Positions 15,681 through 44,545 of a DNA stretch of 64,000 bases are shown here, in pieces. A program made the position numbers and the translations under genes. This DNA is from Takakia lepidozioides (taxonomy: Eukaryota; Plantae; Bryophyta), in assembly GCA_030704615.1 (NCBI GenBank), contig CM060733.1, forward strand, positions 74,338,001-74,402,000, written 5' to 3'. Every line of letters starts with the position of its first letter. Positions within the stretch are counted from its first letter, which is position 1. Below the pieces are notes generated by a model. The model did no database searches and was not told the DNA's origin. It worked only from the letters and a program-made list of their open reading frames with translations.

Positions 15681-16628
15681 TGATGTGGCGCCGGAGCTGC
15701 GCGTGGTCATAGTCATACACGCTGGCTTGGCTGAATGATTAAACGGTCATTGTCCGCCATGTCAACCGCTGAGTGGGAGAGACACGTGCTGAATAGGGGA
15801 CATGCCACATGTCAGGCTGCACAGGCATCCCTGATTGTGAGCTGTGACTGCGGAGGGGGGAATCAGACGTCAGCACGTGTCGCTTCGTGGTTCCAGCACG
15901 TGCTTCCCCATGTGGTTGACATGTGTCGCCTTGGGGGTGGGGATTCACAGTCATGGATATGTCTGTATAGGGGGGTATCAGGGAACGCCACGTCGCACGA
16001 GGACATGGTGAGACTGTGACTACCCACGTGCTGGACTCTCCTGAATATCCACATGCCCAAACTTTGCCAACATGGCCACTTGTAAATTCTTTGGGTTTTG
16101 ACGCCTATACCAATCATCAGCTTTACCTTTGAGGTTTAACCTTGCCACCTTGAATATGAGGTTTGCTATTTCATGAGCATGAGCGGCATGAGCGGCATGA
16201 GCGGCATGAGCAGAGTAGTAACACAATCGGTTTTCATGAGCAGAAGTACAAATTTCGAAAATAAAAAACAATAAAAAACAATAATTTAATGCAATGTGTC
16301 AGGAAAAACAAATATATTAATCGGCCCCTTGAAGGGAAAATTGCATTTTTGACAGTTGTGCTCATGATATTTCGTCTTCCGCTCATGCCAATTCCCAGCG
16401 ACATGTGCAAATATGGCGCCGAATTTCGCGGTAATAGGGTCCGTAACCTGAAAAACGGCGACGTATTTCGCGGTAATAGGTTTCTCTGGCGAAAAATGGG
16501 AACGAATTCCGCGGCTATAGGTCCCCTCATGACAGGTAATTCAGCGCCATTTTTCCAGTGCATGTTCGGACTTAGCCAGTTCGGACTTAGCCAGTTCGGA
16601 CTTAGCATGTTCAGACGTGCAACTCACC

Positions 16629-18729: not shown

Positions 18730-19009
18730 AAGACTCCCAGGATGGAGTGCGGGGAAGCTCCCTGGTAGAAGGGGGATGCAGCGATGGGAATGAATGCGAT
18801 GCCGATTTGTCCGAGCGACGAAGCCTGATCCAAATCCAGGGAGCCAACTATCTCAAAAATCCACAGTCAGAGTGTTAATGAATCTTGTCTCCGGAATGCG
18901 GCCCCTGGTCTTTGCGCAATAACTGCCAACGGTATGCAGTCAGAAAGTGGGGGGCCGTCCGGATGATGACGGCTGAAGGGGAGAAGCCGGCACCGTGCCG
19001 TCACATTAC

Positions 19010-22000: not shown

Positions 22001-22260
22001 CAGTCATGCAGGTAATTCCAAGAGCGGATGGATGGAAATCCGGCGCCGGATTTCCATCCACCAGGTAAGTTGGCGCGCAAAATTTCCGTCGTGCAGGTAA
22101 TTCGAAGAGCGGATGGATGAAAATCCGGCGCCGGATTTCCATCCATCCGCTCTTCGAATTACCTGCATGATTGGAAAAATGGCGCCGAATTTCCGATTTT
22201 GGGTGCCAGTCAGATCTGGGACTTAGCCGTTTTCGGCAACGAAATGGAAAAAAGTCGCCG

Positions 22261-22292
<32 letters not shown>

Positions 22293-22633
22293 GCCATTTT
22301 TCTTGTTTGGGGCCGAAAACGGCTAAGTCCCAGATCTGACTGGCACCCAAAATCGGAAATTCGGCGCCATTTTTCCAGTCATGCAGGTAATTCCAAGAGC
22401 GGATGGATGGAAATCCGGCGCCAAATTTTCATCCATCCGCTCTTCGAATTACCTGCATGACGGAAATTTTGCTCGCCGACTTACCTGGTGGATGGAAATC
22501 CGGCGCCGGATTTCCATCCATCCGCTCTTGGAATTACCTGCATGACTGGAAAAATGGCGCCGAATTTCCGATTTTGGTGCAAGTCAGATCTGGGACTTAG
22601 CCATTTTCGGCAACGAAATGGAAAAAAAGTCGC

Positions 22634-22678
<45 letters not shown>

Positions 22679-23199
22679 GCCATTTTTCTTGTTTGGGGCC
22701 GAAAACGGCTAAGTCCCAGATCTGACTGGCACCCAAAATCGGAAATTCGGCGCCATTTTTCCAGTCATGCAGGTAATTCGAAGAGCGGATGGATGGAAAT
22801 CCGGCGCCGGATTTTCATCCATCCGCTCTTCGAATTACCTGCATGACGGAAATTTTGCGCGCCGACCTAGCTGGCGGATGGTAATCCGGCGCCGGATTTC
22901 CATCCATCTGCTCTTCGAATTACCTGCATGACTGGAAAAATGGCGCCGAATTTCCGATTTTGGTGCCAGTCAAATCTGGGACTTAGCCATTTTCGGCAAC
23001 GAAATGGAAAAATGGCGCCGAAAAAAAAAAAAAAAAAAAAAAAAAAAAACGCCTTTTTTCCAGTTCGGGGCCGAAAACGGCTAAGTCCCAGATCTGACTG
23101 GCACCCAAAATCGGAAATTCGGCGCCATTTTTCCATTTCTGGGCCCAGTCAGATCTGGGACTTAGCCATTTTCGGGCCCGAACTGGTTAAATCGCGCCG

Positions 23200-23235
<36 letters not shown>

Positions 23236-24017
23236 GATATTTTGCAGTTCTGGGCTGAAAACGGCTAAGTCCCAGATCTGACTGGCACCCAAAATCGGAA
23301 ATTCGGCGCCATTTTTCCAGTTCTGGGCCCAGTCAGATCTGGGACTTAGCCATTTTCGGCCCCGAACAGGAAAAATGGAAGTTGAAGACTCCCACAAGCT
23401 GAAACCATACTCCACACATGCACCACTTGCTTCCTTAACATCCGAGCTCTTCTTGAACTCCTCAAACCCTGCAACACTTGCAGAACAAGAGCTTCTTCAC
23501 AAGCTCTCAAACTTTCAATGATGCTCTTCTTGAAGACCTCCTCTTGTACATAAACACCACAAGACTTTCTTCTTGCAAACCCTGCAACAGCTTGTAACTT
23601 AAGAGCTATCTATCAAGCTCTTTTCCACACACAAGTGTTAACTATGCTAACACCTTGCACTTATAGATGTAAGCAGATCTTCTTCTAGTGATACGGAAAT
23701 GGTGAAAAGAGGAGAAACCATTCTATCACGTTATATAAGTCAAGCCAATGGCACCTTTGCTAAAAGACTCCACCATACAGACCTCACCCACTCTCCATCT
23801 CAAGTACTAGAGCGACTTCAATTGGCTCAACTTTTGTTTGACCACATGTTTTTTGAAAGCAGAGGCATAGCCAGTGGGTACTTTCAGGGCCGAAAATGGC
23901 TAAGTCCCTAGAATGGCTGGCACCAAAATCGGAAATTCGGCGCCATTTTTCCAGTTCCGGGCCCAGTCAGATCTGGGACTTAGCCATTTTAGGCCCCGAA
24001 CAAGTAAAATGGCACCG

Positions 24018-24061
<44 letters not shown>

Positions 24062-24190
24062 GCCATTGTTCTAGTTCGGGGCCTAAAATGGCTAAGTCCC
24101 AGATCTGACTGGCACCAAAATCGGAAATTCGGCGCCATTTTTCCAGTTCCGGGCCTAGTCAGATCTGGGACTTAGCCATTTTCGGCAAGT
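19010..24190. repeat. Palindrome array built on GGATGGAAATTCGGCGCCGAATTTCCATCC (30-bp perfect palindrome)
   Basis: 53-bp units (30-bp palindrome plus 23-bp linker) over 19660-20860, inverted around ~20240. Larger units with poly(A) loops flanked by CAGATCTGGGACTTAGCC inverted repeats over 21050-24190. Confidence 0.95.
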
Positions 24191-24409
24191 AAATGCAATA
24201 AAATGTTGCATTTCAAGTCCACTGGTGCCACATTCCAACTTCACATGACCCTATTTCCGTGCCTCCTAACCCTATTTCCGTGGACTTACAATGGTCTGCT
24301 CATGCTTTTTTTTTTTCCGCTCATGCTCATGCCGCTCATGAAATAGCAGCCCCCCTTGAATATCTTGTCATCTGATAAATCTCTTACATCTCCCGCCATT
24401 TGCAATTTT

Positions 24410-26300
24410 TCAAAAGAAGGATGGTAGTAAGAGGTTTTGTGGTGACTACAGGCAGCTCAATCTCCATACTTTGAAAGATGCCTACCCTATGCCCTTGATA
24501 CAAGATGTGTTACAACAACTCGGAAAATCACAATGGTTTTCTGCATTAGACCTGCAATCAGGGTTTTGGCAAATCAAAATGAGAGATGATGACATCAAAA
24601 AAACAGCCGTCATTACCAAAAGGGGACTATTCGAATGGTTGGTATTGCCCTTTGGCTTGAAGAATGCAACAGGAACCTTTCAAAGGGCCATGAATATCAT
24701 ACTACATGATGAACTCAAAAACTTTGCAAAGGTTTTTGTAGACGACATCAATGTACACAGTGCAACTTGGGACCTGAGCATCTACAATATCTTGACATTG
24801 TGCTGAAGAAGTTGAGAAAGCACAAGTTAAAGCTCAATCCAAACAAATGTGAAATGGGCAGACAAGAGTTGTGTTCCTAGGCCACGTGGTTTCCAAGGAA
24901 GGTGTAAGGCCTGATCCAAGCAAGGTGGTGGCCATACAACTGGTGTTTTCCAGTACCCACAAATCCAATAGCGGTAAAGAGCTTCATTGGACGTGTTACG
25001 AACTACTACAGGGATTACATCAGAGGCTATGCAAGCACATGTGTGCCATTATTCGCATTGACAAAGAAGGAGCCAGAATTTGCTTGGAATGCTGAAGCAC
25101 GGAATGCCTTTGAGGCATTGATCCTCAAATTGTAGCAAGCACCTATCCTGGTAAGGCCCGACTTCACAAAACCGTTTATACTAGATGTGGATTGGAGCAC
25201 TAAGGGTGTAAGGGCTATACTTTCACAAAAGGAACATCGTAAAGAACATGTCATAGCATATGCAAGTAAGGCATTGATAGATGTTCAGAAAAGATATCAT
25301 CCCATGGAGGGCGAGTGCTATGCACTAGTGTGGGGCATCCTGCACTTCCGACAGTATCTCTATGGAACACCATTCACGATAAGAACCGACCACAAACCAC
25401 TGCCAAAGAGTACGCGCCAGCTGTGCGAGAAGAAACAATACCCAACATATTCAACAATGAACAGGTACTTAAGCCAATTGGTACCCTACAATCTCAAAAA
25501 AAGGAGTTAAGAGGTGAGCATGCATCCTACCTGTTCCACAAGGCTATATTCGACATCACTGAGCCATTGCGTGAAACAAAATGAGGAAACAAATATGTCA
25601 TGATGGCAGTAGACCCCAACAGTGAGCAAGTAGAGGCATGCCCAGTCACTGTCCATACAGCAAAGTTGGCTGCACGATTTCTGGAAGAACAAGTTGTAGA
25701 CAGGTATGGAACACCCAAGATAGTGCTCACAGATCAAGGCACTAAGTGGGGCAAAGAATTTGAAGAGGTATGTGCAAAGTTTGGCATACAACATGATCAC
25801 TCAGCACCATATTGGCCGCAAAGCAATGGGATGGTGGAACGCATCATCAAATCGCTCAAACACAGCTACGGGTACTGAGCATACAGGGAGAACATGAATG
25901 GGATCGTGATTTATACAAAGCCCTATTTGGTTATAGAGTACAGACCTCAACTCGATTCTCTCCGTTCAAAGTACCGACAAGCAAAGACATAAGGATAGAT
26001 GTTGATAACAGATGGGGGAAAATCACAGAGCTTGTGGACTTACACGATGATGAGGAGGCCATCAACAATATGATGATGGAGAAGATAGACCTCCTGACAA
26101 ATATGGACATCACCCTTCATGAGAATGTACACCGAGCGTAAAAGGAACAACAAGAGAGTTACGCAGCTCGCAGAACAAGCAACTCCACATTGAACACACT
26201 TGAAGAAGTTTAGCTTGTAATGATGCTCAGACCAGGCAAGCACAAGGGAATCGAGCCAACTTGGGAGGGGCCACACACATTCCAGGGGTACAAAGACAAG
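24410..26300 (+). pseudogene. Degenerate Ty3/gypsy pol (RT, RNase H, integrase)
   Basis: KKDGSKRFCGDYRQLN, FSALDLQSGFWQI, PFGLKNA, FVDD; DWST..VIAYAS..EGECYA..TDHKPL; TDQG, PQSNGMVER. Many frameshifts and deletions. Confidence 0.9.
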
Positions 26301-28391: not shown

Positions 28392-31302
28392 TTTGATCAT
28401 CTGTCTATCTAAAGGTAGTTTCTTGTGTTTGCTAATGAAAAGAGATTGACAAACCAATGCGACAAATGCATTGACCCACGCATAGCAAAGATGTTAGACG
28501 TCATACATTGAGAGTCACTGGACTTGAACAGTCATTCCATTACAAGTTGTAGTCAAGGAAAACACGATTTTTATGGGCTTGTATCCCGCTGTAGAAGTGT
28601 GTTGACTTCGTTGAAACTCAAAGTGGCTTGGTGAATGAAGAAGTCGCGCTTTGGATCACAAACCATCCTTCTCAAGAAGACGAAGTAAAGGTGTTTGCAC
28701 GGTATGAACTTCCCTCTCTTTCCCAAACTACTTGAAAGCATACCAACAAAATCTGGACATGTACAATTGGGAAAATTGGAAACAGTGATTTCGTACGTCC
28801 TGTCTTGCAGCGCAGATGCGGATGAGATCATGGTGAAGACCCGACCATACCCTGGATCAGGCACTTCCATGGTTCCCGCAACACGAGTGTGAAGCATTCT
28901 GGCGGACTCAATTTTGCCGTAGTGTTCTGCGGTTGGAGGGAATCGTTGAACAAGCTTCCCATTCCGTCTGGTTGGCCACAAGTGAGCGTCAGGCGGAGGT
29001 ACCCGTGAACCGCTTCCACTTGAAGCACCTTCACGTGCAATGGAATGTCTGGCTAGGGAGAAACTCGCCTCTTCCAGCATTGCAATCTCTCGGTGAGTGA
29101 GACCTGTGCCCATCTTCACAGGCCACACGGTTGGTGGAGTAGGCTTCCTTACCACGGAAGGCCTCACTGTACCATACACACATCTCCCACAATCGTCAGC
29201 GCAGAACCAAAACTTGTGGTTCTTTGCCTCGCCTTGTCCGTAAGGGAGAAACAAACCCGTGAATGTAGGAGCTGCAGTGCGTTCTTTCGCTCTGGAGATT
29301 AATGATGTACATTTTTCATGATTGGTGGCCCTGATCGCCGCGCATTTCACACGAGATCCAACACTTGTGCGTTCTATATGCCAAACCTCGTCCAAGCCCA
29401 CGGACTCGATTATATGCGGCACCACGTTCTGGTCTTCAACCATTGCAGTGACAATGCTTGATGCAGGGGTCCGGTCTGGGCCAGAGTAGCCCTCACCTGT
29501 GGATGTTCCGCAATTCCATCTCTGATCCAAGGGAACACGTGGCATCGAGAAGTTCACCCTGTCCGGCCTATGGGAATCTGCATCCGATCCCGGAGGGGTG
29601 TCCAATTTCCGTTTGCAAGACCCGAATCTCTCTTCGTCTTCCAGATGGGGAACTCTTCCCACGAGAGGGGTGCCATCTGCACATATGCTCACTGCCCGCG
29701 CTATTTTGCTGGGATCCCCTGATCTTCCAGCTGCCCGCAACATCAACTCGCTCCTGTCCGGACCTTTGCCACCAAGGCCACCCCTCAAGAATGACCTATA
29801 TCTGGTTTGCTGCTGCAGAGCACGAATGAGGTCATCGGCCGTCGCCGCATACAAATCTCTCCCTTTTTTGCCGGATTGCTGCAACCAGGCATTGTGCACT
29901 GTCTCTGCAAGATTGCAAGAAGGCATGTCCGCCATCTCCTCAATGGACATATGCTGCAAGGCAAAAAAACAGAAAGCCGATATTAGGATTGGACCCTGAA
30001 AGATATATCCGAAGCACCCAAACGAAGGTGAATACAAACCACTCACCGTTGTCATGGCCGCTCCCCACTGTCGGTAACGGAAGTGCCAAAATGCAAACCA
30101 GTCTTGCAGTGCCCTCATGTTGTCCTCCGATGCCGCTCCAGATGAGTACCACCAGGCACGAATTGTCTGGAACAATGTATTCGCTTCCCCCATAGTTTTG
30201 GCGTCCTTGTACTGGTTGCACAGTTGGTGATGCATAGTCTGCATATCTGGCTTGATGTATGTCTTTGTGTGTTTGTCCAGGGATTGTGTCCAATGGAAAA
30301 GACATGTACGTTCTCTTCCAGGCATTGGCACTTTTGGGTCTCCCGTCCCGAACACAATGCAGACAGCGTTGAAGTTAGCTTGAGCACTATCGGCCATGAA
30401 ACCAACGAAATTGGGAGATGGGAGACCATTGGAGGCCATAACTCAAATGAGAGCTTCCCACATGAGCTGTTGTGAATCTGTGTCCTCTGACTGCATGTCA
30501 CACACTGCAATTGTCATGACTCGCTGGTACACAGGGTCGTAAACATGACATGCCATTGTGGTCCAGTTTTTAACCCTCTTGACATGATCGAACATAAGGA
30601 AGCAGTTGCCAAGATCACCACCCTTCTGCATACGTTTAACCAGGCTGACCCCGCTGCCCTCACCTTTTGTGGACATTTTGAACAAGAACACTTTCCTGGC
30701 TCCTTGTCCCGGGAAAACGCTGTCTTGGATGTAGTCATACATGCTCCTTTTCTTCAAATCCATAATATTGTCCATATAACCTCGGCTCCCAGAGCCCATT
30801 CTTAAAGCGTTCACCTGATTCCTAATGTTTGGAGAAGTCAAAGTTGAGAAATGGTCCATAACAGTGTCCAAAGCCGATCCCTCCAGTATTCCTCCAACCG
30901 AATTTGATGCACACAGAATACGGCTTTCCAGAAAGGACTTGCTCGCCAATTGCAGATGTGGTTCCAGTTGGATTGGTATCCAACTCTTGCCTTATCAGAT
31001 GCGAGACTGTGTCAACGCTCTCCCTATAATCCCCCTTGGACACAGGGTGGTTGTGAAAACCGAAATGGACACAGGCTCTAGTCAGGGTTTTGAATCGATG
31101 CACCACATAATACATTCTGGCGCGCCACACAAAGCAAGGCAGCAAGGTGGTACCCTACAGAACTTGCACACAAAAGTGTTACTGTATGGTGGTGTCACCC
31201 CAGGCTTGAATGGATTCTCACTGACACCATCCCATTCGCTTTGGTTTTGCACACCTGACAATGCGAAGTATCTGCATTTCATGTTCTCGCATTTCAGGTG
31301 CC

Positions 31303-31387
31303 TGTCGTGCGCATACATATCGCTACACAACTACATCGCTGTCCAAACCACACCACACATATATGCACAATAAAGTAGTCTGCCACA
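31303..31387 (-). repeat. Repeat A, terminal copy (85 bp); second copy at 31751-31835
   Basis: Two mismatches between copies; both bounded by TG..CA. Confidence 0.92.
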
Positions 31388-31388
31388 A

Positions 31389-31748
31389 TGATAAGAAAGC
31401 TAACAAATGACACTGCTCTCCACACAAGAAACAATGTGAAATCCAAAACCATCACTCTTTAAAACAGTAGTCGAGCCAGGGGCACCCCAAGCTATGGGGA
31501 CTCCACCCCACAACAACCTACACTCCCATCATGAGTAAACTCAGATCTAAACGCACACAGGAGCTCGGTCGCGCAGGCTCAACTCGAGAAAGATGAGCCG
31601 CGCGACTGCCGCTCTCGTGAAGATAAGACGGACCAGGTGTCAAACTAAACTTGACACCTGATTTAACACTTGACCTAAATCCAAGTGTTAACTACAAATA
31701 ACTAGTTTTATTCTAGCTGTTTTCACACTGTGCTTATTTAACTTGACA
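31389..31748 (-). repeat. Repeat B (360 bp), 3' copy
   Basis: Identical by eye to 42753-43112. Confidence 0.95.
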
Positions 31749-31835
31749 GCTGTCGTGCGCATACATATCGCTACACAACTACATTGTTGTCCAAACCACA
31801 CCACACATATATGCACAATAAAGTAGTCTGCCACA

Positions 31836-31850
31836 ATCGCCCCCCTAGCT
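31836..31850 (-). promoter_or_regulatory. Polypurine tract preceding the internal copy of repeat A
   Basis: The minus strand reads CTAGGGGGGCGAT|TGTGGC; the same motif is in the second family member at 60844-60856. Confidence 0.75.
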
Positions 31851-32095
31851 GGTGGATAGGTCCCTCTACCTCCAGATAGCTACAAGATGTAATAGCCACA
31901 GCCGTACTAAGTCCTCTATCACTGTCCCTATTGTACTCAAACTCTATAGACCAAGAGGCCGGGTACAAGAGTAGCCCCATCGTTAGTCGCCATCTTGCAA
32001 TCTGTGAACTTGAGCCAGGACCTCGTGTGTTCAAGGTCTCCTAGTAGCTGGGCCTTGCGTTTCTTGTTAGCCTTCCATGGTTGTATCCACTCCCA

Positions 32096-33732
32096 CTATC
32101 CAATGCAATGTGGACATAACCAATCCCCATCCGGAACCATCTCAAGAGGTGGAGTCAAGCATCCCATATGCCAACCTCTAGAGCATTGATCGCACACCAG
32201 CATGGTGGCTGCCCCTTTAGCAGACCCACACAACATGCACCTCAAACCTGCAGATACCACTGCCAGGTTTGGGTCAATCCTGCCATCGACATTCGGAAGG
32301 TGACATGGCGCACAATTACGCACATGGTCCTTCCAAGTTATGCCATCCCGACCCTCCAAGACCAAGACGCCTGAGGGCAAGACCTCTCGAACCCTCAAAA
32401 TAACACGTCCTGCAGTCACATCCAGGGTCGTAGGAGCAGTCTGCTGCAGATAGACATAGTCACCAGGGTTGAATCTCCGAACCCCAGGACGATAGCCCCC
32501 ACCACGTATGGTAGCATACCTCAACGTATCACGGTGTTGTGCAATGGCAAGGTTCTCGAAAGCCATGGGCATGACTCTCTTGAACAACTCTGCACGCTGC
32601 TCACATGCACGTGCCCACACGTCCGGATCGTCAAGGTTAAGAACTGTAGCAGCTTCTCTGCGAATGGATGTAGGCAAATCCGGCTCTCGGCCAAAGAGAA
32701 GAAAGTATGGTGAGAAGGAGGCAAGTGATGCTTGCTTGCTGAACCTGTAGCCCATGGCTAACCAGGATAATTGAAGGTCCCAATCCCTAGGTGTCCCTTC
32801 TGCAAGCCATACTTGCGCAAACCCCTCTTTACTGTCTGAACAACTCTCTCTGCCAAGCCATCGGCTTCAGGATGATCCCGGGAAGTGGTGCGGTGGTCTA
32901 TCAAGGCCTTGTCACACAAAGCCTGAAACTCCCCCAAGAACTCTCTCCCTTGGTCCGTGAGTACCTCAGCTGGAGCACCGAATCGGCTAAGCACACAATC
33001 CAGGAATGCATACGCAGCTCCCTCACTAGCCTTATCAGGCAATGGAACCAATTCAATCCACTTGGAGAAGTGCTCCACCATCACCAACACGTACTTGTTG
33101 TGGCGCATGGTCAGTGGCAACGGCCCTGCGAAGTCAAGACTCCACCTGTAGCCCAATCCCATGATCGGAAGAGGGTGCAATTGTGGAGTAGGGGCGTTGA
33201 ATGAAGCACGCACCCTGTCACACACCATGCACCTAGCCACAAATTGTTGCACCTCTGTGTGCATACCACGCCACCAATACTGCCCCTGCAGTAGACTATG
33301 AGTGCGTCGCACCCCAAAATGCCCCAACTCCTCATGGGCATGCCGCACTAACCGTGCCCGCTGTGTTGGGTGAGGCACAATCCTCACTCGACCATCCTCC
33401 CACACTCGAAGCAGGTGTGTCCCCTCCCACCTGAACCTCTTGGCTCGTTGTAGGATCCGATCCCTCTCCTTGGCAGTCATAGTGGCTGTCGTGTCTCCAC
33501 TGCGGAGGTAGTCCAACACAACTGAATCCTCATGTATATCTTTGGCGCCACCCTGCTCATTGCTGGCCTCAGGGTCCTCAGACACTTGATCTACAGTCAT
33601 CCCTGTTGTAGGTCCAACCTGGCCTTCCGCTGCCAAGATACACAGAAATGCAGATGCATGCCATCCGGGCACCATCTCCTCGTCTGTCTCACCATGCCAC
33701 CGAGCTCCAGTGTCATCTGCTGGCTCGTGCAT
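32096..33732 (-). CDS. Gypsy integrase (HHCC, DDE) with C-terminal PHD finger; frameshift near 32780
   Basis: HEELGHFG..CMVC, WSLDF, TDQG, GLAER; PHD CMLC..CDQC..WHMGC..WLCPHC (C4HC3). Confidence 0.92.
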
Positions 33733-35227
33733 GGATTGCGACTCAACCCATCTGCATTTCGATTGACCAAACCCGGTCGATGCACCACCTGAAAGTCATA
33801 CTCTTGAAGGATGAGTGCCCACCGTGCAAGCTTCCCCGTAAGCTTGTCTGACTCCATCAACCACTTGAGTGGTTGGTGATCCGTGACAAGGGTGAAGAGA
33901 TTGCCGTATAGATAGCACCTGAAGTGTGCCACGGCCCACACTGCAGCTAAGCATTCTCCCTCATATGAGCTATACTTAGACTCTGCAGCATTGTTCGAGC
34001 GGCTAGCATAAGCCACTACGAACTCTCTTCCCTCATCATCCACCTGTGTGAGCACCGCTCCAAGCCCCAGCATGCTCCAATCTGTATGCAGCTGAAAAGG
34101 ACGCCCCCTGATAGGTCGTCTCAAGATGGGCGCCGAGGTCAACCTCGCCTTGAGCTCTTGAAAAGCTTGTTCTTGCTCATCTTCCCACTGCCACTCCTGG
34201 TCCACCTTGGTCAGCTTGGTTAGAGCCTTTGCAATGGCACTAAATCCCTTAACAAACCGTCTGTAATAGTTTGCTAACCCCATGAAAGCTCGAACTCGGC
34301 TCACATCCGTGGGGCGTGGAACCTGTGCAATGGACTCTACCTTAGTCTGTTGTACCCCCAATCCTCCAGGATATATCATGTGACCCAGATACTCAATCTG
34401 GTTGTGGAAAAACTTGCACTTGCCCGGATGTAACTTCAATCCTGCGTCCTCAAGCGCTCAAATACCCCCTGAAGGTGTCTCTCATGCTCCTCCACCGTAG
34501 CACTAAAGATGATGATGTCATCTATGTAGCACCGAGCAAACTCCACCCCTGCTAGAATCCTGTCCATGACTCTTTGAAACTCAGCGGGAGCGTTTTTAAG
34601 CCCAAATGGTAAGAACCGCCACTGGTATAGGCAATCCTTCCCGTGCTCATTGATCCCCCAGAATGCCGTCTTTTGCTTATCCGCCTCCTTGATCGGCAAC
34701 TGGTGATATCCGGATCGTAAATCCAACGTGCTAAAGACCTTGGAATGCCCAATGGCATCAAAGATCTCCTCTGGTGTTGGCATGGCATACCTATCGGACT
34801 TGGTCTGACGATTTACAGGCCGGTAATCACCGCACATACGTCTCTCCGTCCAATTGCCATAGACATCCTTCTTAGCTGGCATCACTGTGGCTGAAGCATA
34901 CTCTCCACCAGAGAGCTCCACCAAACCTGCCTCCCAGAGATCTTGAGTCCTCATCTGAATCAAAGACCTCTCCATGTCACTGTATCTATAGGGTCTCCGA
35001 AAGATTGGCGTGTCAGTGGCCAACTCAATACGGATCTCTTGACCCTTCAGTGCTCCCAAGTCCTTCAAACTGAAGGCAAAGCAATTCCTATAAGCCCTCA
35101 GGAACCGCCGTATACGTCGTCTCTCTCCTCCGGTGACAATGGGTCCAATATCAGGCTCCCAATTGTCCTCCGTAACTGCAACCTTAAGTCCAGTGGGCTT
35201 AGAGGTAGAGGACGCGTCCCGTGGTTG
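33597..35227 (-). CDS. Gypsy reverse transcriptase and RNase H, with frameshifts
   Basis: RMCGDYRPVN, LDLRSGYHQ, PFGLKNAP, YIDD; TDWS, VAYASR, TDHQPL, NADGLSR. Confidence 0.95.
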
Positions 35228-38200
35228 CTATGCTGCAACCTCTTGAGCAGTACCCCCTTCCTGCTCAGTCAATGACAAGGCCTCATCCTGCCCCATCATC
35301 TCATCATTGAGGACCTCCTCATCCCGAGAAGAATCCCCAACCTCATCCATCACAGCTGCCTTCGCTGCCAACTCCCTCTGAACCTCGAGCACCTCCCACA
35401 TGTGCCATGGATGTCTACACCTCGTGGTCCTCACCGGCTCGCCCCCACTCGCTGCCTGTACCGTCTCGGTAGGCAGAGAGACCGTCAAGGGAAGTGCACT
35501 CCGCACTCTACGTTGCTCAGCCATAGCCAAGCTGACAATCCAGGTCAAGCAATTGAGATCCATTGCTTGCCCCAACACCTGACGACGTGATGCCTCAGAA
35601 AGAGAAGGCACCGCCGTGGTCCCAGTGGAAAACCCCATAGCCCGCTCTCGCTCGTCGGCATTAGGCTCCACTAACTGCTGCAACTGAGCATCCCACAGGA
35701 GGCCAGGTCCACCATCCCGAAAAGCATGGGATCCTGGGAAGCTGAGCAGTGTAGGTAATGCTGCTCGTGGTTGACCCACCCTGTTGACCACTGCCAAAGG
35801 CGAACGGTCATCGTGTCTCACACGTTGAGACTGCCTTCCTGTGTCCAAAATGCCATCCACGGTGAGGTGTGCTGGCCGCTGCACCCCATCAAATGCACGC
35901 TTGAGCAGTGCGGGTGGCATCAAGTTAGTCCACCATAGTCGTGGACGATGAGCCCGTGACCCCACTGCAGCTGCATCCAGCAACACTGCTGACCCAAGCC
36001 ACGACCGGACTTGATGCACACTGGCCATCACCCTGGCCCGAGAATCACCCATCAGTGGCACATTCTCCAAGATGTATGCCGGAGATACAGCCTGATGAAG
36101 CTGCAAGTGGCGCAAAATCCGCACCATCTCCCAAAACAGACCCGTCCTCGAGTCTCGCAATCCATTGCCATGCCCGGCTGATGAATGCCCTTGGCAGGGC
36201 CAACCTGCCACTACCAGATCAATGGAGCCAACCCGCTCCAAATCTTGCGCCCCCAGCAACGCAATGTCTGCTGGCAAGGCCTGCTGATATCCACGAACTG
36301 CAGACACCGGCAACAACTCAGGGTGCTGCTGCACCATCTGAGCAACATGGCGCAGTGAGACGCGTCGTGCAGTCTCATCCCTCTCCACATACAGGTAACG
36401 TCGAACTCGTACACCTGCCTGCAGCACTGCAGCCAATCCAGTGCTGATCCCGCCAAATAAGTCCAGAAGGCATATGCCTTCATCCGGTCGCTGCCACACA
36501 AGAGGTGTGGTGTCCAATGGCGACAACTGAGGTGGCCCTGGTACAATCACCGCACTCTCCTCCTCTCCTGACGGTACAAAAGCTTCTACCCAAGCTTGTT
36601 GCACCCGTCCATCAGCAGCGTGCTGCAAATCCTTGCTCGTACCCCACAACGGAGTGTGAGCAACCATGGCAGGCAACTCCGCCGTACCATGCATGTCATC
36701 CTGCTCTGCTGGAGGTGGCACATCCTCTGCATGGGCATTGCCTTCCAGCAACTCTCCAGGCCAACTGACTGCAGCTGTGAAGGCGGCTAGTGTTGGCATC
36801 TTGCCCCGCTGAGCAGCTGCAATACCCCCAATGAATGTCACAGGGAGCTGTGCACGGCGACCATCCCCTGACTGCCATCCAGGCCTGTAGGATGCTGACT
36901 CCTCCCAGAAATCCAGGGTGAAGCCCATGGGGTATAACACTGCCCCACCAACGAGGACATCGTAAGAGACCGCGTCTGTCACAATGGCCTTGGCTCGCAT
37001 CACTGAGCCATCTACAGGATGATCCGGCTGCAGTCTAATAGCCAACTGATGCCGTGTCATGCCGCGAGCCTGCTCTGATCCTCCCAGAGATGTCTGTATC
37101 TGGAAAGGACAAGGCTCCATATCCGCCTCCATGAGGCCCAAACCTGCAATAGCAGCTCTGCCCAACATCAGTGGCTGAGCTCCTGAGTCCAACAAGACCC
37201 GCAGTGGCCGGTACTTCTTGCCTGCCGGTCCACTCAAAGTGAAAATGCCTCCCTGGTTGTCTAACAAGACAACTCCAGGTGTCACCATGGCGCGCTCAAA
37301 GGCTGGCCTAGCTGGCAGCTCCGTCAATCTGGCAGCTGCAGCTTGCCAGGGCGCTGCCGTGGCAGTCTTGACCCTCAAATCCGAGGATCCCTCTGCCACT
37401 ACACCTTCCACTAACTCCGCAGAAGATGAAGTGACCTCTCCACTCTCGCAGAGTGTTGCTGCTAGTCTGAACACTGCAGCTGGTCTCACTCCCGGCGTCG
37501 CAATCATGGTCGCCGAGAACAGTGGGGCTTGACACACAGAGGTGGCTGCTCCCAATAACACACCGGCTGCACTAGCCTTGGTAGCAGGTGTCAGTGCTGC
37601 ACGGGTAGCTCTTCCCAATGGCATAGTAACCTCCGCCTCGGTAACAGTCGGGCGAGAACTAGGTGCCATGGATGGCGTTGACACTGTCTCCGCCAAGGTG
37701 AATGACTGAGGCAGCCTTGCCTGACGGCTTGCCTCCCCACGTTGTGGATCCAACTCCACCTCTGCACCTCGTGGCTCAGGAACTCGTGTTGCTCCTCGAG
37801 TCACGGCTGCAGCAGACTCCACCTGCTCTAATGGTAGTGCTGCTCCGCACATGAATCCCATTCCGCCCATATCTCCTCCCTCAGGAGCAGGAGGTGGGCC
37901 ATCCCGCCTGGGAGCCGGTACCGCCTGAGCTATAGCCATGGCAGCGAGCCTCTGCTCTAGCTGCTGAAGCCGATTGGCCATGCCTTGGTCAACACCCTGA
38001 CCTCCGCGTCCTTGGCCATGTGGAGGTTGCCCTTGGCCTGCACCTCGTGCCCGACCACCTCGTCCTCTTTGGGCTGGTCCACCTCGCCCCCGGCCACCAT
38101 TGTTCCCTTGGAACTGGCCTGGGCGCAACTCAGGATGCAAGTCATAACACTGGGCATCTCCATGCCCATACTTGCCACAATGCCCACACTGCAACTGTGC

Positions 38201-39424
38201 AGGCTGTGCTTGTGCCGGCCTTCTGCCACTCTCTGGGCAATCTCTCTTGACATGGGGTCCTCCACATGTCCAACATATCACCCCTGGTTGCTGTTGGCCT
38301 GCAAAAGATGCCACGGGCCTCTGCACCTGAGGTCCCCTGTAAGCTCCATGGAACTTGGGCTGGGCAACCTTGCCCCCCTGACCACGCTGTTGGGCAGTCC
38401 CTTGTGCTTGTGGGCTGACAGCTGTGCCCCGTACAGGCATGTCCTTACCAAATCCAATTGTAACAACTCGCTCCTCCACCATGTTGAGCTCAATCCGCTC
38501 AGCCAGCAGAAACACATCTGCTAATGTGGGTTGGGCTGCTTGTAACAGGGTTGCATCTCGCACCCTTCTCTTGAGCTCCTTGTCCAGAATTCCATACCAA
38601 AACTGGATTGCCTGAGCTTCAGTAACCCCTTGGGTCACACTTATCAAGCGCCTCATACGAGTGTACGCCTCTCGCAGGCTCTCACTGGGTTTGCGCTGGA
38701 AGTCTTGCAAACTTCGCAGCTTCTCTGTCCGTACACCTTGGTAGTTCCTCCGCAACTCCTGGAAGAACTCCACCACCGGGTTGAATCTAGGCAAATGTGT
38801 TGTAGTCGTGGCAGGAGAAGCACCTTTTGAACTGGTACCACCTTCAGAAGTACCAGCACTACTTGCTCCACTACTAGTGCTGGCAGTGGGAGCTATTGGT
38901 ACTGATGCAGCTACTGGTCGCGTCGTGCCTCGAGTAATGGAGACGTAGTCAGGTGACCAATACATCCTCCACTCCTCAATCTCTGCTTCATGTCCTCGCC
39001 TGAACTCGTGGTAATCGTCCATAGGCGGGCCTTCCAAATGCTGGAACAGTCCCTTCCACGCCATGAATGGGGTGAATAGCTGTGGATTGCGCATCTGCTG
39101 CAAATCACACCAGCTGTCGAACTCCTGGATAAAGTCATCCAACTCGATTGTGCCCACAGCTCCAGAGTACCTACGAGGCCCCTTGGTAGCTCCATACATC
39201 TCCTCCATGTCGTCCCACAACAATGGCGAATGAAAGTGCACACCTGTTGATGAAGCCTCCGAGTCTGTGTCTGACTCTACAGTAGTTGAGGGTGGCGGTG
39301 AAGGTGGTCTGAACCGAATACCTCGTCTTGTGACCCCACTCTCACTGTCACTGCTTGTAGCCGTACTCCCCTCAAAACCCTTGGGTAACTCCGTAATGAC
39401 ACTCACAATGTGCACCTCCTCCAC
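35228..39424 (-). CDS. Gag - zinc knuckles - aspartic protease - C5 cytosine methyltransferase (DNMT3-like) polyprotein, 1398 aa
   Basis: Knuckles CWTCGGPHVKRDC and CGHCGKYGHGDAQC; protease LLDSGA. MTase at ~36485-35540 has motif I LDLFGGISTG, IV GWPCQ, VI ENV, VIII AHRPRLWWTNL, IX ERAMGF and X RQVLGQAM. Confidence 0.93.
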   Translation of the reverse strand: MEEVHIVSVITELPKGFEGSTATSSDSESGVTRRGIRFRPPSPPPSTTVESDTDSEASSTGVHFHSPLLWDDMEEMYGATKGPRRYSGAVGTIELDDFIQEFDSWCDLQQMRNPQLFTPFMAWKGLFQHLEGPPMDDYHEFRRGHEAEIEEWRMYWSPDYVSITRGTTRPVAASVPIAPTASTSSGASSAGTSEGGTSSKGASPATTTTHLPRFNPVVEFFQELRRNYQGVRTEKLRSLQDFQRKPSESLREAYTRMRRLISVTQGVTEAQAIQFWYGILDKELKRRVRDATLLQAAQPTLADVFLLAERIELNMVEERVVTIGFGKDMPVRGTAVSPQAQGTAQQRGQGGKVAQPKFHGAYRGPQVQRPVASFAGQQQPGVICWTCGGPHVKRDCPESGRRPAQAQPAQLQCGHCGKYGHGDAQCYDLHPELRPGQFQGNNGGRGRGGPAQRGRGGRARGAGQGQPPHGQGRGGQGVDQGMANRLQQLEQRLAAMAIAQAVPAPRRDGPPPAPEGGDMGGMGFMCGAALPLEQVESAAAVTRGATRVPEPRGAEVELDPQRGEASRQARLPQSFTLAETVSTPSMAPSSRPTVTEAEVTMPLGRATRAALTPATKASAAGVLLGAATSVCQAPLFSATMIATPGVRPAAVFRLAATLCESGEVTSSSAELVEGVVAEGSSDLRVKTATAAPWQAAAARLTELPARPAFERAMVTPGVVLLDNQGGIFTLSGPAGKKYRPLRVLLDSGAQPLMLGRAAIAGLGLMEADMEPCPFQIQTSLGGSEQARGMTRHQLAIRLQPDHPVDGSVMRAKAIVTDAVSYDVLVGGAVLYPMGFTLDFWEESASYRPGWQSGDGRRAQLPVTFIGGIAAAQRGKMPTLAAFTAAVSWPGELLEGNAHAEDVPPPAEQDDMHGTAELPAMVAHTPLWGTSKDLQHAADGRVQQAWVEAFVPSGEEESAVIVPGPPQLSPLDTTPLVWQRPDEGICLLDLFGGISTGLAAVLQAGVRVRRYLYVERDETARRVSLRHVAQMVQQHPELLPVSAVRGYQQALPADIALLGAQDLERVGSIDLVVAGWPCQGHSSAGHGNGLRDSRTGLFWEMVRILRHLQLHQAVSPAYILENVPLMGDSRARVMASVHQVRSWLGSAVLLDAAAVGSRAHRPRLWWTNLMPPALLKRAFDGVQRPAHLTVDGILDTGRQSQRVRHDDRSPLAVVNRVGQPRAALPTLLSFPGSHAFRDGGPGLLWDAQLQQLVEPNADERERAMGFSTGTTAVPSLSEASRRQVLGQAMDLNCLTWIVSLAMAEQRRVRSALPLTVSLPTETVQAASGGEPVRTTRCRHPWHMWEVLEVQRELAAKAAVMDEVGDSSRDEEVLNDEMMGQDEALSLTEQEGGTAQEVAA

Positions 39425-42400
39425 GTGACACTATAAGGCTCTAGTACTAATCTAATAGTGACACGGGTGGGCACCTGTTGCAGTCTAAGGGTCATATCCC
39501 AATGGCTCAGGGCACCTGCACCTGCATCCACCGCAAGAACTCCTATGGTTGGCTGGTCATCAACCCAGCCTCACCATAGAAGAAACACTGGTGGTCTTGC
39601 TGGTCATCACTCCAGCCTCACCACCGACAGCATACTCTAGGATTGACCGGTGATCAAATCCGGCCTAATCCCTATGAAAGCAAGCGCCCACACAAAACCA
39701 ACATGGCGCACAGTCAAGCATGCAGGTGTTGGGGGGGATCCAAACACAAGAAATCAAAACATCAACACCCCCACACCAAAATCCAGCAGCAACGCTGATC
39801 CTGCAGAATATCCCAGCCCAAAACCCCGGACTGACTGGCCTCCACCAAGAGAGGCTTTGGCAACTACAAGTACAAGGTAATGAAAATAGTACAGAGATGG
39901 AGGGGAAGAATAGAAGCCCGACCAAGCAAGATCTAATCCTGATCTATGCTATCAACTGCCAGACTTCTCTCAAAGTGCCTCGCTCTGCATGATGGTAAGG
40001 TGTAGGAGGTATATCTATGTCCAGAAACCTGCCACTAACCTTGTCCCAAGCTACAGTAGCTCGCTCTAACCAACCCTCCTCCTCTTTCTGCCAGGTAGAG
40101 ACAAAGCAATACTCTCCTATCTCCCGCTCACTGAACACTAAAGAAAACAAAGGTAGGGTTGATAGTCTCTCAACTCGAAAGCTTTGAGACGGTTGCGGGT
40201 GTCCTCATTGCGAATGACTGCATCTCCTTCACGCACAACAAACATGTCATTGCTGATGAACCCCCGCTCGTGGTTGCCCTGTGCAGAGCGTATCCGGCTG
40301 CAATCATGTCTGATTGCACAAACTTGTGTAGCTCCTGCTCCTCTGCTCCAGTACACCACGGCCTTGTGACTGAACACCTTGGTCCCCGGGGCTGTCTTTG
40401 GCTGTGTTCCAAGCCTAGCTTTCACCCACTTTGGTATTTCACCTACAGCTGCAGAACTGCTGGCTCCAACAGAGTTCTGACTGTCCAAGGCGATATTGAG
40501 GCCCTCAATGCCAACTACAGCAGTCTGTTGTCTACTGCTAATGCCTGACTCCCAGTATGCAATCAACTCGTCCAACTGTTCTCCACTCAAATCAGTCTGA
40601 GTTCCTTGGGAAACATAAATCCTGTCCCCTTGTGTGCACAGACTAAGAGAAGAGACCTGCCCTTCAATTACGTCCTCATTTCCCCCAGCCATGCAAGGAG
40701 TACATCCACCAATTTGTCTCTCATATAGACCAGCACAGGTTCTAGAGACAGGATTGTGGATCTTTCATGGCACACTCACACTCTAAAAATTCCATAGATT
40801 TTTAGCAGAGTCCCAAAAACAGAAACCAGGTCTAGATAGGTAGATTTCCCCTTTCTGCAGATATCCCCTCAAAAACTGAGTCAAACGGAGCTCATTTGAC
40901 AAAGATATGACCAACCAGGCTCTTTAAACATTTAAATTAGATCAAAAAAAAAAGTTTTTTTTTTTTTTAACACCAAAACGCTTTTGCCATTACAACCTGT
41001 TCCCAGGTTATCTACGAGTTCCCGAGGTCGTTCCCCTCCAGGATTCTCCAGGCACCAAGAGCTCGTTAATTCCAACACTCGACCTCAGTTGGGTGGGGTA
41101 TCACGATTTGCTTTCTCTGCACGTGGGCCTGCCTCCTCGAGACCTAGAGACTACAAACCAGGAATTGGGGCGATTTCAAGAGCAGATGCACTGCGCAGCA
41201 CCTTCATGGCTTATGGACAGGCGGCCTGCTGTGATGTGGCCGTCTTTGCATGGAATCCAAAGCCAAGACCAGCTTGAAGTTCCATCAACTTGGTCTAATT
41301 CGCATCTCTCGCCAACGATTATTGTTGGCTTAGAATGGTTTCCGCCTTCCTGTTACTGCTCGTGTTTGCTTTTGTGTGCATTCTACAGGTCAGGGATCGG
41401 CGACAACAGGCACCAGATTGCCCCGTCACCACCCCCACAAGGCACAGACGACTTCACTGCCAGGAAAAAGAAAGTGAACCATGCTCAGCATGTAGACCCA
41501 AGGCCTGGGTCCATCTGCATCAGCTCCAGTATAAGAGAGACAATCATATAGTTATCAAGTCTCTACAGGAATTTGCGATTGCCTCAGTAAAGTGGAACTC
41601 AATCTGCAGCCTCCTTCCGCCGCCTCTCCATCAACCCTTGGAAGCTCTCGTCCGCTGGCCTCATCCGTCAGCATTGCTTCTCCTGCTACGAGTCTTCGCA
41701 TTTCCTCCCCTGCTCGCCTGTGCAGAAGTAAGTACCCTTGACGCCGAAATGACAGTAGAGGCAAGTGATCAGTTGGAAGTGTTCAATGATGAGACAAATA
41801 GAGCTGGAGCTCCCTTGACCTGTATCGCCACAATCTTGGACTCGGGCAGTGTGCTGAGTTGAAAGCTGGGTTGTGAACCACCATTCGACTTTCCACCAGT
41901 TTCCACATCAAAATGGTGGACCCAAGGTGCAAGGCAGCAACAGCTACTTGGCTTTGTACAAACCTGAAGCACTTAAAAAACGAAAACGACTTTGCACCTT
42001 GCACTCTCCGAAATCAACAATGCCCCCAACAACCCTTTTTGTCAGAAAGTTGGTTGCTTATGCAGATAATCGACCAGGTGAAAGCAGCTTTCCCAGCCAC
42101 AATCACAAGTAGCATGAAGATTTGTGAGACTCCTGGTTTTGCAGTGTTGATGATATGCCAGCAATGGGCTCCCCGTTCTCCATCGCTTTGTGCTAGGCTT
42201 TCTCTCTCGGGCCCTGCACCTTCAACCAGCTCGCTGCGCCATGCTCTACCTGCCGGCGCTGCATTTACTGGAGGGAGCAGATTTACAGCTCCTCCTTCAA
42301 CTGGCTCCGCTACACCAGCTCCACCTGCTCTTCCGCTGCCTTTCCTGACCGCTTCTGGTCTGTCCTGGTTCTAATTTAACACTGGTCTGTGCACATCGAA

Positions 42401-42738
42401 CTAAGGCGAGCAGCCCGGCCATCTCCAGGCACGGGAGTTCTACCCATCTGCTCGATCACAGGCTCCTCCTTTAAGTCTCGCACTTGGTCAGTTTCCCAAT
42501 GGCCAATCGCTGCTACTCCATGATGTCTCCTCACCGACCAAAACAAAGGCTGCTTCCATGCAGTGTAGCTCCATCATGCCCGGCGGCCTCATGCCAGAAC
42601 CAACGCTGATCGAAACCTGCATATTTTGTTTTGTTTTTTTTTTTTTCTTCTAAGCTTCTAAAACTAAGCACTACTTACACACAGGTAATCGTACAAGTGC
42701 TAACCCTCAACTCCTACCTTGCACTCACAGGTAAGAGG

Positions 42739-42752
42739 TCATCTTTCTCGAG
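42739..42752 (-). promoter_or_regulatory. Putative self-priming PBS
   Basis: The 14 nt immediately after the 5' repeat B are the exact reverse complement of 42947-42960 inside B; there is no TGG tRNA-type PBS. Confidence 0.7.
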
Positions 42753-43112
42753 TGATAAGAAAGCTAACAAATGACACTGCTCTCCACACAAGAAACAATG
42801 TGAAATCCAAAACCATCACTCTTTAAAACAGTAGTCGAGCCAGGGGCACCCCAAGCTATGGGGACTCCACCCCACAACAACCTACACTCCCATCATGAGT
42901 AAACTCAGATCTAAACGCACACAGGAGCTCGGTCGCGCAGGCTCAACTCGAGAAAGATGAGCCGCGCGACTGCCGCTCTCGTGAAGATAAGACGGACCAG
43001 GTGTCAAACTAAACTTGACACCTGATTTAACACTTGACCTAAATCCAAGTGTTAACTACAAATAACTAGTTTTATTCTAGCTGTTTTCACACTGTGCTTA
43101 TTTAACTTGACA
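42753..43112 (-). repeat. Repeat B (360 bp), 5' copy
   Basis: TG..CA bounded and matches 31389-31748; contains 10-bp-stem hairpins at ~42998-43024 and ~43027-43055. Confidence 0.95.
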
Positions 43113-44545
43113 TGCCCATTACAGACTGTTCGCCTGAATATGAGGTTGTCGTTGTTGTGAATATTGGAGGTTTTTGTGCGGCACCAAGGGTGCCCATCGT
43201 GCTTTTTGTCCATTCCTTCCAGGAGACTAGAAATGCCCCCCAAGCGACCAGGAGGAGGCAGCTCGAAAACAATATTACCATCAAAAGATTCCGGCAAGAA
43301 TGCCACCCTCTGAATATTGAAAGTGCTCCAGTCTATCCCCCTCAACTCACTCTTGAATCCTGCCATCCCTCCCATGGCTTTCAGTTTAGGAATGACACTG
43401 GTGATCTCCTCCACATCTGCTTCTACAGGTGGACATGGCTGATCCACGGGCGGTATTGCACATGTGTCATCGGAGGATGAGTCTGAAAGCTCAACTACAT
43501 GGTTAACGGTACTCGTCTCCTTCTTGACAACCACGGGTGTTTTCTCCTGGGCCACTGATGTTGCCGTGCCAGGAGTAACGAAAGATCCTGCAGACTCTCT
43601 CAGAGGGGCACTGAGCACCCTGTATCTGCCTGGAGGCACTCTCCATTGTGTGGCTGGTGCAGTATGCGAAGGTTTCTGGAACATGTACTTGAGCAGTTTT
43701 CCATTTGCATCGTACACTTCCCTTTGAAGGAATAGAGTTCCATTTTCCAACCGAAACTGCGTTGCGAGGACGTGTTCATGCACCAGCGCAAAACCATCAT
43801 CTTCCACCTCGTAAGAAAATGGCACAGGGTGGTCCTCACTGAAGAAGTCTGCGTCAAGGGAGCCCATGGCCTGGGAGGCCATATGTCGATGTTGCTTCAG
43901 AAAGTAGAGTTCACAGTCCGACGGTGCTTGTGAATGCAAATTGTGTGGGAGCGGAGTTTTTGGCGTCCTCACAGAGAATTGCAGGTATCGCTCCGGCTTG
44001 CAGATCTCCTAACGCGGGTTTCCACTTCTGTGAAATGTCTCCCCATGCAAACCAAGCGCATGGTCACAGAGTGCCCAAATACGGAGTCCATAATGTCAGC
44101 CCTAATCCTAGAATCCAACTGTTTTTTCACAAGTGCCCCACCAGTGCAATCGTTGACAGATTGACCGACAGAGCCGCCGTTTGGTTGTCATGTCAGAGAG
44201 CCCAGAAGAGATGCCCATTTCCATTTAATTTTAACGGCACCTGCACCGCTGTACAACTGTACATACTTGACATTCCTCTGGAACATGCCAGAATAACGAA
44301 CTTTTTCAGATGGGAGGTGATTAGACCCCAACGATTTTTGAATGGATGAGGATCCAATGATCTCCGCCCATATTTCATAACGATTAGATGGACACGTGTT
44401 CGCCATGCATGTGGAATGAGTCAGTGGCGCACTGAACGTTGCGAGCGAACATCTTGGCGTTGAAGGCCTTGCGATGAACCTCCCATAGTCCTCTTTTTCC
44501 CCTCTTCTCGTTATTGTCTTTGCAACCCTGGATTCTGCAGAGACG

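Follow-up and report, generated by a model that had tools for sequence, protein, structure and literature searches.

The window analysed here is a 64,000-nucleotide stretch of the genome of Takakia lepidozioides (Bryophyta; contig CM060733.1, positions 74,338,001 to 74,402,000), and all positions below are counted from its first letter. On its minus strand lies a retrotransposon that carries, between a protease and a Ty3-like reverse transcriptase (RT), a DNMT3-like cytosine methyltransferase domain, and that is bordered by split repeats (Table 1). The first of its long open reading frames (ORF1) belongs to a stop-free frame of 1400 codons (35228-39430; first ATG at 39208). Its N-terminal part has a weak Retrotrans_gag match (E 0.006, below the cut-off), two CCHC knuckles and a DSG protease motif upstream of the methyltransferase, so that the first-pass annotation, which had placed the domain in the same frame as gag and protease, was right on this point.

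Table 1. Features of the retrotransposon in the window and the basis on which each was placed.
Feature	Positions	Strand	Basis
Whole element, 11,810 bp, A1-ORFs-B1-A2-B2, ends TGTC...GACA	31303..43112	-	Repeat comparison and empty-site contigs
Target-site duplication (TSD), left copy, 4 bp, GGCA	43113..43116	-	Sequence and empty-site joint
TSD, right copy, 4 bp, GGCA, outside B2	31299..31302	-	Sequence and empty-site joint
Repeat A1, 360 bp, TG...CA; predicted RNA start near 42960 within it	42753..43112	-	Repeat comparison; RNA start deduced from the self-priming complement
Repeat A2, 360 bp, identical to A1	31389..31748	-	Repeat comparison
Repeat B1, 86 bp	31751..31836	-	Repeat comparison
Repeat B2, 86 bp, matching B1 at 84/86 positions; forms the true right end	31303..31388	-	Repeat comparison and empty site
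Palindrome GACA-GC-TGTC where B1 meets A2, made up of right end, 2 nt and left end; integrase is predicted to cut here	31745..31754	.	Sequence
Primer-binding site predicted for self-priming; its 14 nt are exactly complementary to A offsets 153-166 (42947-42960)	42739..42752	-	Sequence; 10,000 shuffles
Leader stretch absent from most family copies, perhaps a copy-specific insert; no Pfam match	41184..42500	.	Contig depth
ORF0, an additional frame preceding gag, with one break near 40160 and a single homologue (P0065)	39959..40692	-	ORF scan
ORF1, Gag-(2x CCHC)-protease-DNMT, 1326 codons from first ATG, intact	35228..39208	-	ORF and domain scan
DNMT3-like C5 cytosine methyltransferase, motifs I-X unpermuted, intact	35540..36490	-	Pfam, PDB sequence, fold
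TAG CAA CCA, stop in type I (UAG-CARYYA) readthrough context	35222..35230	-	Sequence
RT and RNase H; the frame is broken near 34440 and near 33716	33600..35227	-	Domain scan
Integrase (HHCC, D 33135, D 32955, E 32850; 34-residue spacing), PHD finger at end; frame break near 32785	32096..33795	-	
Polypurine tract AGGGGGG, just before B1	31840..31846	-	Sequence

The methyltransferase domain matches Pfam DNA_methylase (E=2e-12), and its motifs follow one another in order from 36460 to 35558: I (LFGG, 36460), YVE (36391), IV (GWPCQG, 36205), VI (ENV, 36067), VIII (AHRPR, 35953), IX (ERERAMGF, 35653) and X (LGQAMD, 35575). This agrees with the initial description of an intact, non-permuted and DNMT3-like C5 methyltransferase, as does the finding that DNMT3A is closest both by PDB sequence and by fold. 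The best PDB sequence matches were DNMT3A (E 6e-11), DNMT3B (5e-8), DRM2 (2e-4) and M.HhaI (5e-4); the match to DRM2 was confined to query residues 4-129, and the motif order I-X is not that of the DRM-type circular permutation. When an AlphaFold model built from a 28-row alignment (predicted local distance difference test, pLDDT, 81.7; predicted template-modelling score, pTM, 0.84) was compared by Foldseek, DNMT3A was again the best match (E 5e-17, TM score 0.63-0.68), and all 35 matches listed were DNMT3A, DNMT3B or DNMT3C. Across a 193-row alignment the motif IV Cys is kept in 188 rows (the other five being gaps), the motif VI Glu in 193 and the motif VIII Arg in 190. Judged from these sequences, the domain is probably a catalytically active DNA methylase. 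We noted that in 75 of the 193 relatives the PCQ of motif IV is replaced by ECQ, with the Cys retained.

The DNMT and the RT share a frame, and an in-frame TAG (35228-35230) stands between them. The location of the domain between protease and RT, as first annotated, is therefore upheld, but the continuous polyprotein is not. Together with the next two codons (TAG CAA CCA), the stop fits the sequence described as the type I readthrough signal of plant viruses, UAG-CARYYA (PMC5382211). We surveyed this junction in 59 fetched loci and the window; in 39 of them the end of the DNMT and the start of an RT beyond it could both be located, and in three further loci the DNMT comes after the RT. An in-frame TAG or TAA followed by CARYY is present at 29 of the 39 junctions (full CARYYA in 7), the chance per stop being 0.006. 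The motif is found in five sequence families with 51-100% DNMT identity (the window; L004/L033/L034; the L005 group, which supplies most of the 29 rows; L020/L021; and L043). Where it is missing, five loci (L026, L029, L030, L031, L032) look like mutated versions of the motif, three (L044, L049, L050) are decayed or misregistered, and the distant L054 and L055 have no stop. The stop is therefore a conserved family trait; a mutation of this copy alone was rejected on the same ground. Since the conserved stop and CARYY end the Gag-protease-DNMT frame, the DNMT is likely made at the Gag level, and Pol would likely be made by occasional readthrough of the stop.

The borders of the element differ from those of a canonical LTR (long terminal repeat) element, for which REXdb gives terminal LTRs, a flanking TSD and a polypurine tract beside the 3′ LTR. 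The A1 and A2 repeats are identical at 360 of 360 positions, just as they had looked at first sight, but their reading as ordinary LTRs is not supported: A2 is internal, the 86-bp repeat B lies on either side of it, and the 4-bp TSD is found outside A1 and B2. The purine tract precedes B1, 88 nt before A2, and does not adjoin A2. Contigs of X2 (n=3) and X5 (n=1) join 31298 to 43113 with four letters shared, as expected of an empty site, and these contigs may be paralogous because the host sequence of the insertion is itself repeated. With two differences in 446 repeat positions (A 360/360, B 84/86), the copy is young-looking, in line with the recent insertion first proposed, and polishing of a high-copy repeat could hide differences.

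The same layout is found in relatives. The full A-B-A-B form with a 4-bp TSD occurs in the window (GGCA) and in L038 (CATA); the 3′ end is B-A-B in L016 and L052, and B-A is visible up to the contig end or a collapse in L011 and L021. A second form, A-internal-B, is seen with perfect 4-bp TSDs in L010 (TACA) and L039 (ATTA), while L017, L032 and a second family copy in the window terminate at B, and L026 has a TSD with one mismatch. In 420,867 bases the sequence CGACA-NN-TGTCA is present six times, where 0.4 would be expected, each time just downstream of the PHD finger, and the very distant L042, in which the DNMT follows RNase H, retains CGACA-GC-TGTCA downstream of its PHD. In L019 and in L026/L029 (one event) an exact B start is fused to internal sequence without the purine tract, which is expected if the B start is a free cDNA end.

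Downstream of ORF1, Pol (RT, RNase H, HHCC/rve integrase and PHD finger) is spread over four frames. The best PDB match of the RT is Ty3 RT (E 4e-32), and the integrase matches rve (E 2e-14). Among 120 fetched proteins matched by pattern, the D and the E are spaced by 34 residues in 116 of the 117 that belong to the lineage, and by 35 in all three from the outgroup. The best PDB matches of the PHD finger include CHD4, KDM5A/B PHD1, PHF21A and UHRF1, whose PHDs are readers of unmethylated H3K4; in animal DNMT3 such reading is the task of the ADD domain. No tyrosine recombinase was found in the 11 stop-free stretches of at least 150 codons (12 of the 27 stretches of at least 100 codons were scanned), and, given the rve integrase, assignment of the element to the tyrosine-recombinase retrotransposons was rejected. 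Three breaks in Pol and one in ORF0 make four frame breaks, and the copy as assembled is not coding-competent. At each break, family copies with a one-letter indel relative to this one appear in contigs of all four runs; the breaks may be real or assembly errors.

The sequence directly after A1 is complementary to a stretch within A over 14 nt, the longest match in 10,000 shuffles of A being 11 nt. Complements of differing sequence stand at this place in L021 (15 nt) and L011 (16 nt with one mismatch), so that the self-priming signature is strong in three of ten cases.

How widely is the domain shared, and has it been maintained? A protein search with the DNMT gave 64 matches, led by Calypogeia (76%), Marchantia (62-76%), Sphagnum and Klebsormidium; relatives were also found at 58 metagenome loci and in 253 clusters (50% identity) at E<=1e-30, and in viral contigs there was one weak locus (L001). 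The domain is thus not confined to this copy. By organism the relatives belong to Marchantia, Calypogeia, Sphagnum, Closterium and Scenedesmus, the nearest named ones being bryophytes, in keeping with the land-plant lineage claimed by the first-pass annotation; a relationship to the Klebsormidium element, a kind it had mentioned, also appears, at 46% identity over 257 aa. In the best 150 of the 253 clusters, the DNMT lies after RNase H in 60, directly before the integrase in 18 and before the RT in 16, and 56 are fragments. Ten after-RNase-H clusters were looked up, and one had an organism name, Scenedesmus. A large sister group (L037, L040, L042, L048; P0202 from Scenedesmus) has its DNMT between RNase H and integrase. 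As L042 retains the same CGACA-GC-TGTCA junction, the DNMT domain has moved within one lineage.

A DNMT tree of 193 rows keeps the two placements of the domain apart and puts the window together with Calypogeia, Sphagnum and Marchantia (FastTree 0.97). In the RT-RNase H tree (43 rows, a subset of 103) a 100/98 branch parts every DNMT-bearing row, Klebsormidium among them, from five other Gypsy rows, the window stands with Calypogeia and Marchantia (100/97), and a Coleochaete transcript protein (P0071) falls just outside this clade. The inner branches linking the window clade to Klebsormidium P0051 are weak, and the outgroups are few. Some metagenome loci (L005, L052) are connected to Marchantia P0005/P0015 by very short RT branches, and the Sphagnum DNMTs (P0017/P0039) group beside those of Marchantia; horizontal transfer among bryophytes is possible.

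The ratio of nonsynonymous to synonymous substitution (dN/dS) of the DNMT is 0.07-0.09 in five pairs with the window (dS 2.2-2.9, rough) and 0.15-0.17 in three L004 pairs. In the unsaturated pair L020/L021 it is 0.11 (dS 0.27), equal to that of the protease, and among decayed copies of one family it is 0.35-0.72, like that of the RT. Internal stops are present in 23 of 31 full-length DNMT matches. The values of 0.07-0.17 between families and of 0.11 in L020/L021 speak against neutral evolution, and the domain is under purifying selection. The family is abundant in the source organism, with 91,908 (X1) and 96,061 (X2) contig pieces. Coverage of the DNMT bins is about the same as that of the RT and integrase bins; the use of summed contig depth was limited to this comparison, since it is not a copy number.

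How might an element of this kind replicate? We propose, at a probability of roughly 55%, that it is a young-looking Ty3/Gypsy copy of a Gypsy-DNMT3 lineage in which a leaky stop supplies the DNMT at the Gag level, this DNMT methylates the cDNA, and the end-joined cDNA is cut at the palindrome. The RNA would begin inside A1 and prime itself at the site after A, and the plus strand would begin at the purine tract before B. From these two priming positions the standard, well-established course of reverse transcription would lead to BA-internal-BA. The two cDNA ends would then be joined into an A/B junction, and the GACA-GC-TGTC in the left repeat would be cut after CA on both strands, leaving two ends with 2-nt 5′ overhangs, which, like processed retroviral ends, would be the form used by integrase. 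The integrated A-internal-B-A-B would be a circular permutation of the end-joined BA-internal-BA, opened at the B/A palindrome. A one-repeat circle would yield A-internal-B copies, and joined truncated cDNAs would yield the forms seen in L019 and L026. The leaky stop would place one DNMT on every Gag, and particles would carry the methyltransferase at capsid level. Such a supply would suit cDNA methylation in the particle, where the packaged DNMT would act on the new cDNA. We consider junction-cut integration somewhat more likely than not, and we also lean towards the element's own cDNA as the main target of the packaged enzyme. More tentatively, the scheme may extend to a Gypsy lineage reaching from green algae to bryophytes, with obligatory join-then-cut integration (D-34-E integrase, CA-NN-TG palindrome) and a DNMT3 methylating the intermediate, the land-plant enzyme having moved to the Gag level via the leaky stop. 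If this is true, every new copy would arrive already methylated.

Several observations weigh against this proposal. The stop motif is missing at 10 of the 39 junctions, and the DNMT runs into the RT without a stop in the gene models of Klebsormidium P0051 and Closterium P0139 as well as in L054/L055. Reinitiation or splicing may offer an alternative route to Pol; the L005 group, the commonest family, and no other, has an ATG two codons past the stop. The Pol-level DNMT in many relatives (60 + 18 of 150) means that Gag-level supply is not needed lineage-wide. The self-priming signature is weak (9-11 nt) in six of the ten cases and absent in one, and no complement was found when it was looked for in L042 and L054. 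B1 and B2 differ at 2 of 86 sites although A1 equals A2; under the model the two B repeats should be identical in a new insertion. None of the loci examined shows the mirror product A-B-A-internal-B, and A-internal-B could also arise by recombination between B1 and B2. The dN/dS is undefined in 4 of 18 pairs, with most cross-family dS values near saturation. Finally, the Klebsormidium enzyme gave no methylation when expressed in yeast, a result called inconclusive (de Mendoza et al. 2018, PMC5890265).

We weighed four other explanations. The layout could belong to an ordinary LTR element whose LTR is A, B being a local duplication or an assembly artefact. A does have TG...CA ends with a primer site after it, and the assembly contains small indels; nevertheless, this explanation is extremely improbable, in that the A1/A2 pair is not flanked by a duplication, the TSD and the empty-site joint set the end at B2, and the same layout recurs in L038, L016 and L052. 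That B is an artefact was rejected, being contradicted by the empty-site contigs and by the layout of the relatives. Alternatively, the ends might be rebuilt as in PAT and Ngaro elements, which have the same A1-B1-A2-B2 layout (PMC4157794): the RNA would run from A1 to B2, the internal B1-A2 would template both ends, and B2 would come from the parent's B2. The two B1/B2 differences beside identical A repeats are in its favour. We regard it as unlikely, because standard LTR priming accounts for a conserved self-priming site behind A and a purine tract ahead of B, the joins at the B start are precise, and no tyrosine recombinase was found in the 11 stop-free stretches of at least 150 codons.

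The remaining two explanations concern the methyltransferase. Its main substrate might be chromatin, to which the PHD finger would guide it during or after insertion, and it would thereby silence the new copy or mark its neighbourhood. The kinship of the PHD finger with readers of unmethylated H3K4 points in this direction, and host-benefit self-restraint is among the possibilities raised by de Mendoza et al. (PMC5890265). On the other hand, the DNMT is in the Gag frame, parted from the PHD by the stop and by probable protease sites, and Gag-level supply would suit a substrate confined to the particle, so that we think a chiefly chromatin-directed role has a minor chance of being correct. Still less probable is that the domain is retained to methylate RNA or to bind nucleic acids and has little or no activity as a DNA methylase. 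The inactivity of the Klebsormidium enzyme in yeast and the frequent Glu in place of the motif IV Pro (75/193) could be taken in this sense, against which stand the near invariance of the catalytic Cys, Glu and Arg, the closest fold being that of DNMT3A, and CG methylation by the analogous SymbioDIRS-Dnmt3. We retain methylation of cDNA by a Gag-level DNMT, followed by cutting of the joined junction, as the preferred reading.

Two other parts of the element deserve mention. ORF0 belongs to no known family: Pfam gave no match, and the ESM Atlas gave none or unconvincing bacterial matches (0.91). Its homologue P0065 and the DNMT protein P0027 have an equal longest-contig size, 7357, which suggests the same element. 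The leader stretch is about 1000-fold below the element body in depth in X1 DNA contigs, with no match in Pfam, elsewhere in the window or among the loci. It is partly matched by deeper X7 contigs and is possibly a host fragment captured in this copy. X7 (presumed to be RNA, none of the runs being recorded as such; contigs of one study) covers the coding part and the 3′ part of A, leaves the 5′ part of A and the flanks uncovered, and includes one contig that stops at 31757; we did not use it as evidence.

The surroundings are rich in other mobile sequences. The insertion lies in a SWIM-finger transposase region, Mutator-like by judgement (43052-44008 and 28571-31298, minus strand); the insertion flanks read as one frame, which shares 42% identity over 146 aa with a further transposase-like frame of the window, and a copy related to the host region lies at 16541-18852 (minus strand). 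The second family copy (59240-60941, plus strand) is 5′-truncated and about 80% identical, comprises integrase, PHD, purine tract and B, and terminates exactly at the B end, without A2-B2. Unrelated degenerate Gypsy-like elements with RT, RNase H and integrase remnants lie at 24426-25923 (plus strand) and 9963-14329 (minus strand), and a fragment resembling a CACTA/En-Spm transposase, judged by eye, at 57579-58088 (plus strand). Arrays at 18950-24200 and 61790-63810 are built of 53-bp and ~190/375-bp units with a common GGAAATTCGGCGCC core, in both orientations and with large inverted blocks; they are satellite-like or transposon subterminal repeats.

The question of retrotransposon DNMTs thereby moves from an alga whose enzyme was inactive in yeast into land plants, including Marchantia polymorpha, in whose genome relatives are annotated as Mp4g09160, Mp8g17980 and Mp6g11220. 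Marchantia methylation mutants release transposons (10.1101/363937), and the accessible part of that report does not mention these elements. Two questions become open to experiment: does an element methylate its cDNA in advance, and does a DDE integrase normally take a joined junction as substrate? Programs that search for LTRs would place the ends of such elements wrongly, and the DNMT domains of these elements can inflate counts of host methyltransferases. In a literature search that covered neither most subscription journals nor Repbase, we found no description of land-plant members, of the stop or of the junction-cut route. The group is named streptophyte in what could be consulted of PMC12344493 and bioRxiv 10.64898/2026.05.21.726589 ("streptophyte Gypsy-DNMT3"), which may already cover land-plant sequences.

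Among known systems, the closest is KnitGypsy-Dnmt3 of Klebsormidium nitens, described as having DIRS-like repeats with Gypsy domains (PMC5890265). Both elements have an unrearranged, intronless Dnmt3-like domain with conserved catalytic residues in a Gypsy coding region (protease, RT, RNase H, integrase), and both have DIRS-type split repeats, the published layout being that of the Fig. 4c legend. The Ka/Ks below 0.2 used there as a sign of purifying selection is also found in the window family (0.07-0.17), and the K. nitens protein KFL_009030040 (P0051), to which the 46% identity given above refers, has the same order of protease, DNMT and RT. In contrast, the KnitGypsy-Dnmt3 DNMT is in the Pol ORF, whereas that of the window ends at a conserved stop before the RT, and the nearest relatives of the window element are in land plants. 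In the consulted text of PMC5890265, self-priming, a palindromic junction, a 4-bp TSD, a PHD finger and D-34-E are not mentioned for KnitGypsy-Dnmt3, and the words "Marchantia" and "PHD" are absent from its main text. The element is thus probably a land-plant, and probably bryophyte, variant of the KnitGypsy-Dnmt3 kind; we file it as a variant rather than a plain member because its DNMT would be continuous with the RT only on the predicted readthrough. Self-methylation of cDNA was first proposed for DIRS elements, and SymbioDIRS-Dnmt3 of dinoflagellates, an independent acquisition, performs de novo CG methylation in yeast (PMC5890265); it is likewise a retrotransposon-borne Dnmt3, but in a DIRS element.

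Split direct repeats are defined for PAT/Ngaro-type elements (PMC4157794). PAT, TOC and Ngaro share with the window element the A1-B1-A2-B2 arrangement and an internal copy of the end-to-end junction, but the latter has a DDE (rve) integrase, a protease, a TSD and a Ty3-like RT instead of a tyrosine recombinase. Self-priming is reported by REXdb for Tcn1 elements (PMC6317226). The window element resembles these Tcn1/Tf1-sushi chromoviruses in its predicted self-priming instead of a tRNA primer, as far as the sequence signature indicates, and differs from them in having a PHD in place of the chromodomain, split repeats and a DNMT. With regard to the junction, foamy virus integrase reportedly cleaves 2-LTR circle junctions, and the circle junctions of IS3/IS911 are a further analogue. 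HIV integrase linearises and integrates 2-LTR circles (PMC4372172). In all of these, as predicted for the window, a DDE enzyme opens a palindrome formed by two joined ends and inserts the resulting DNA; in retroviruses this is a side route at the LTR-LTR junction, whereas in the window element it would be the main route, with the site inside the repeat.

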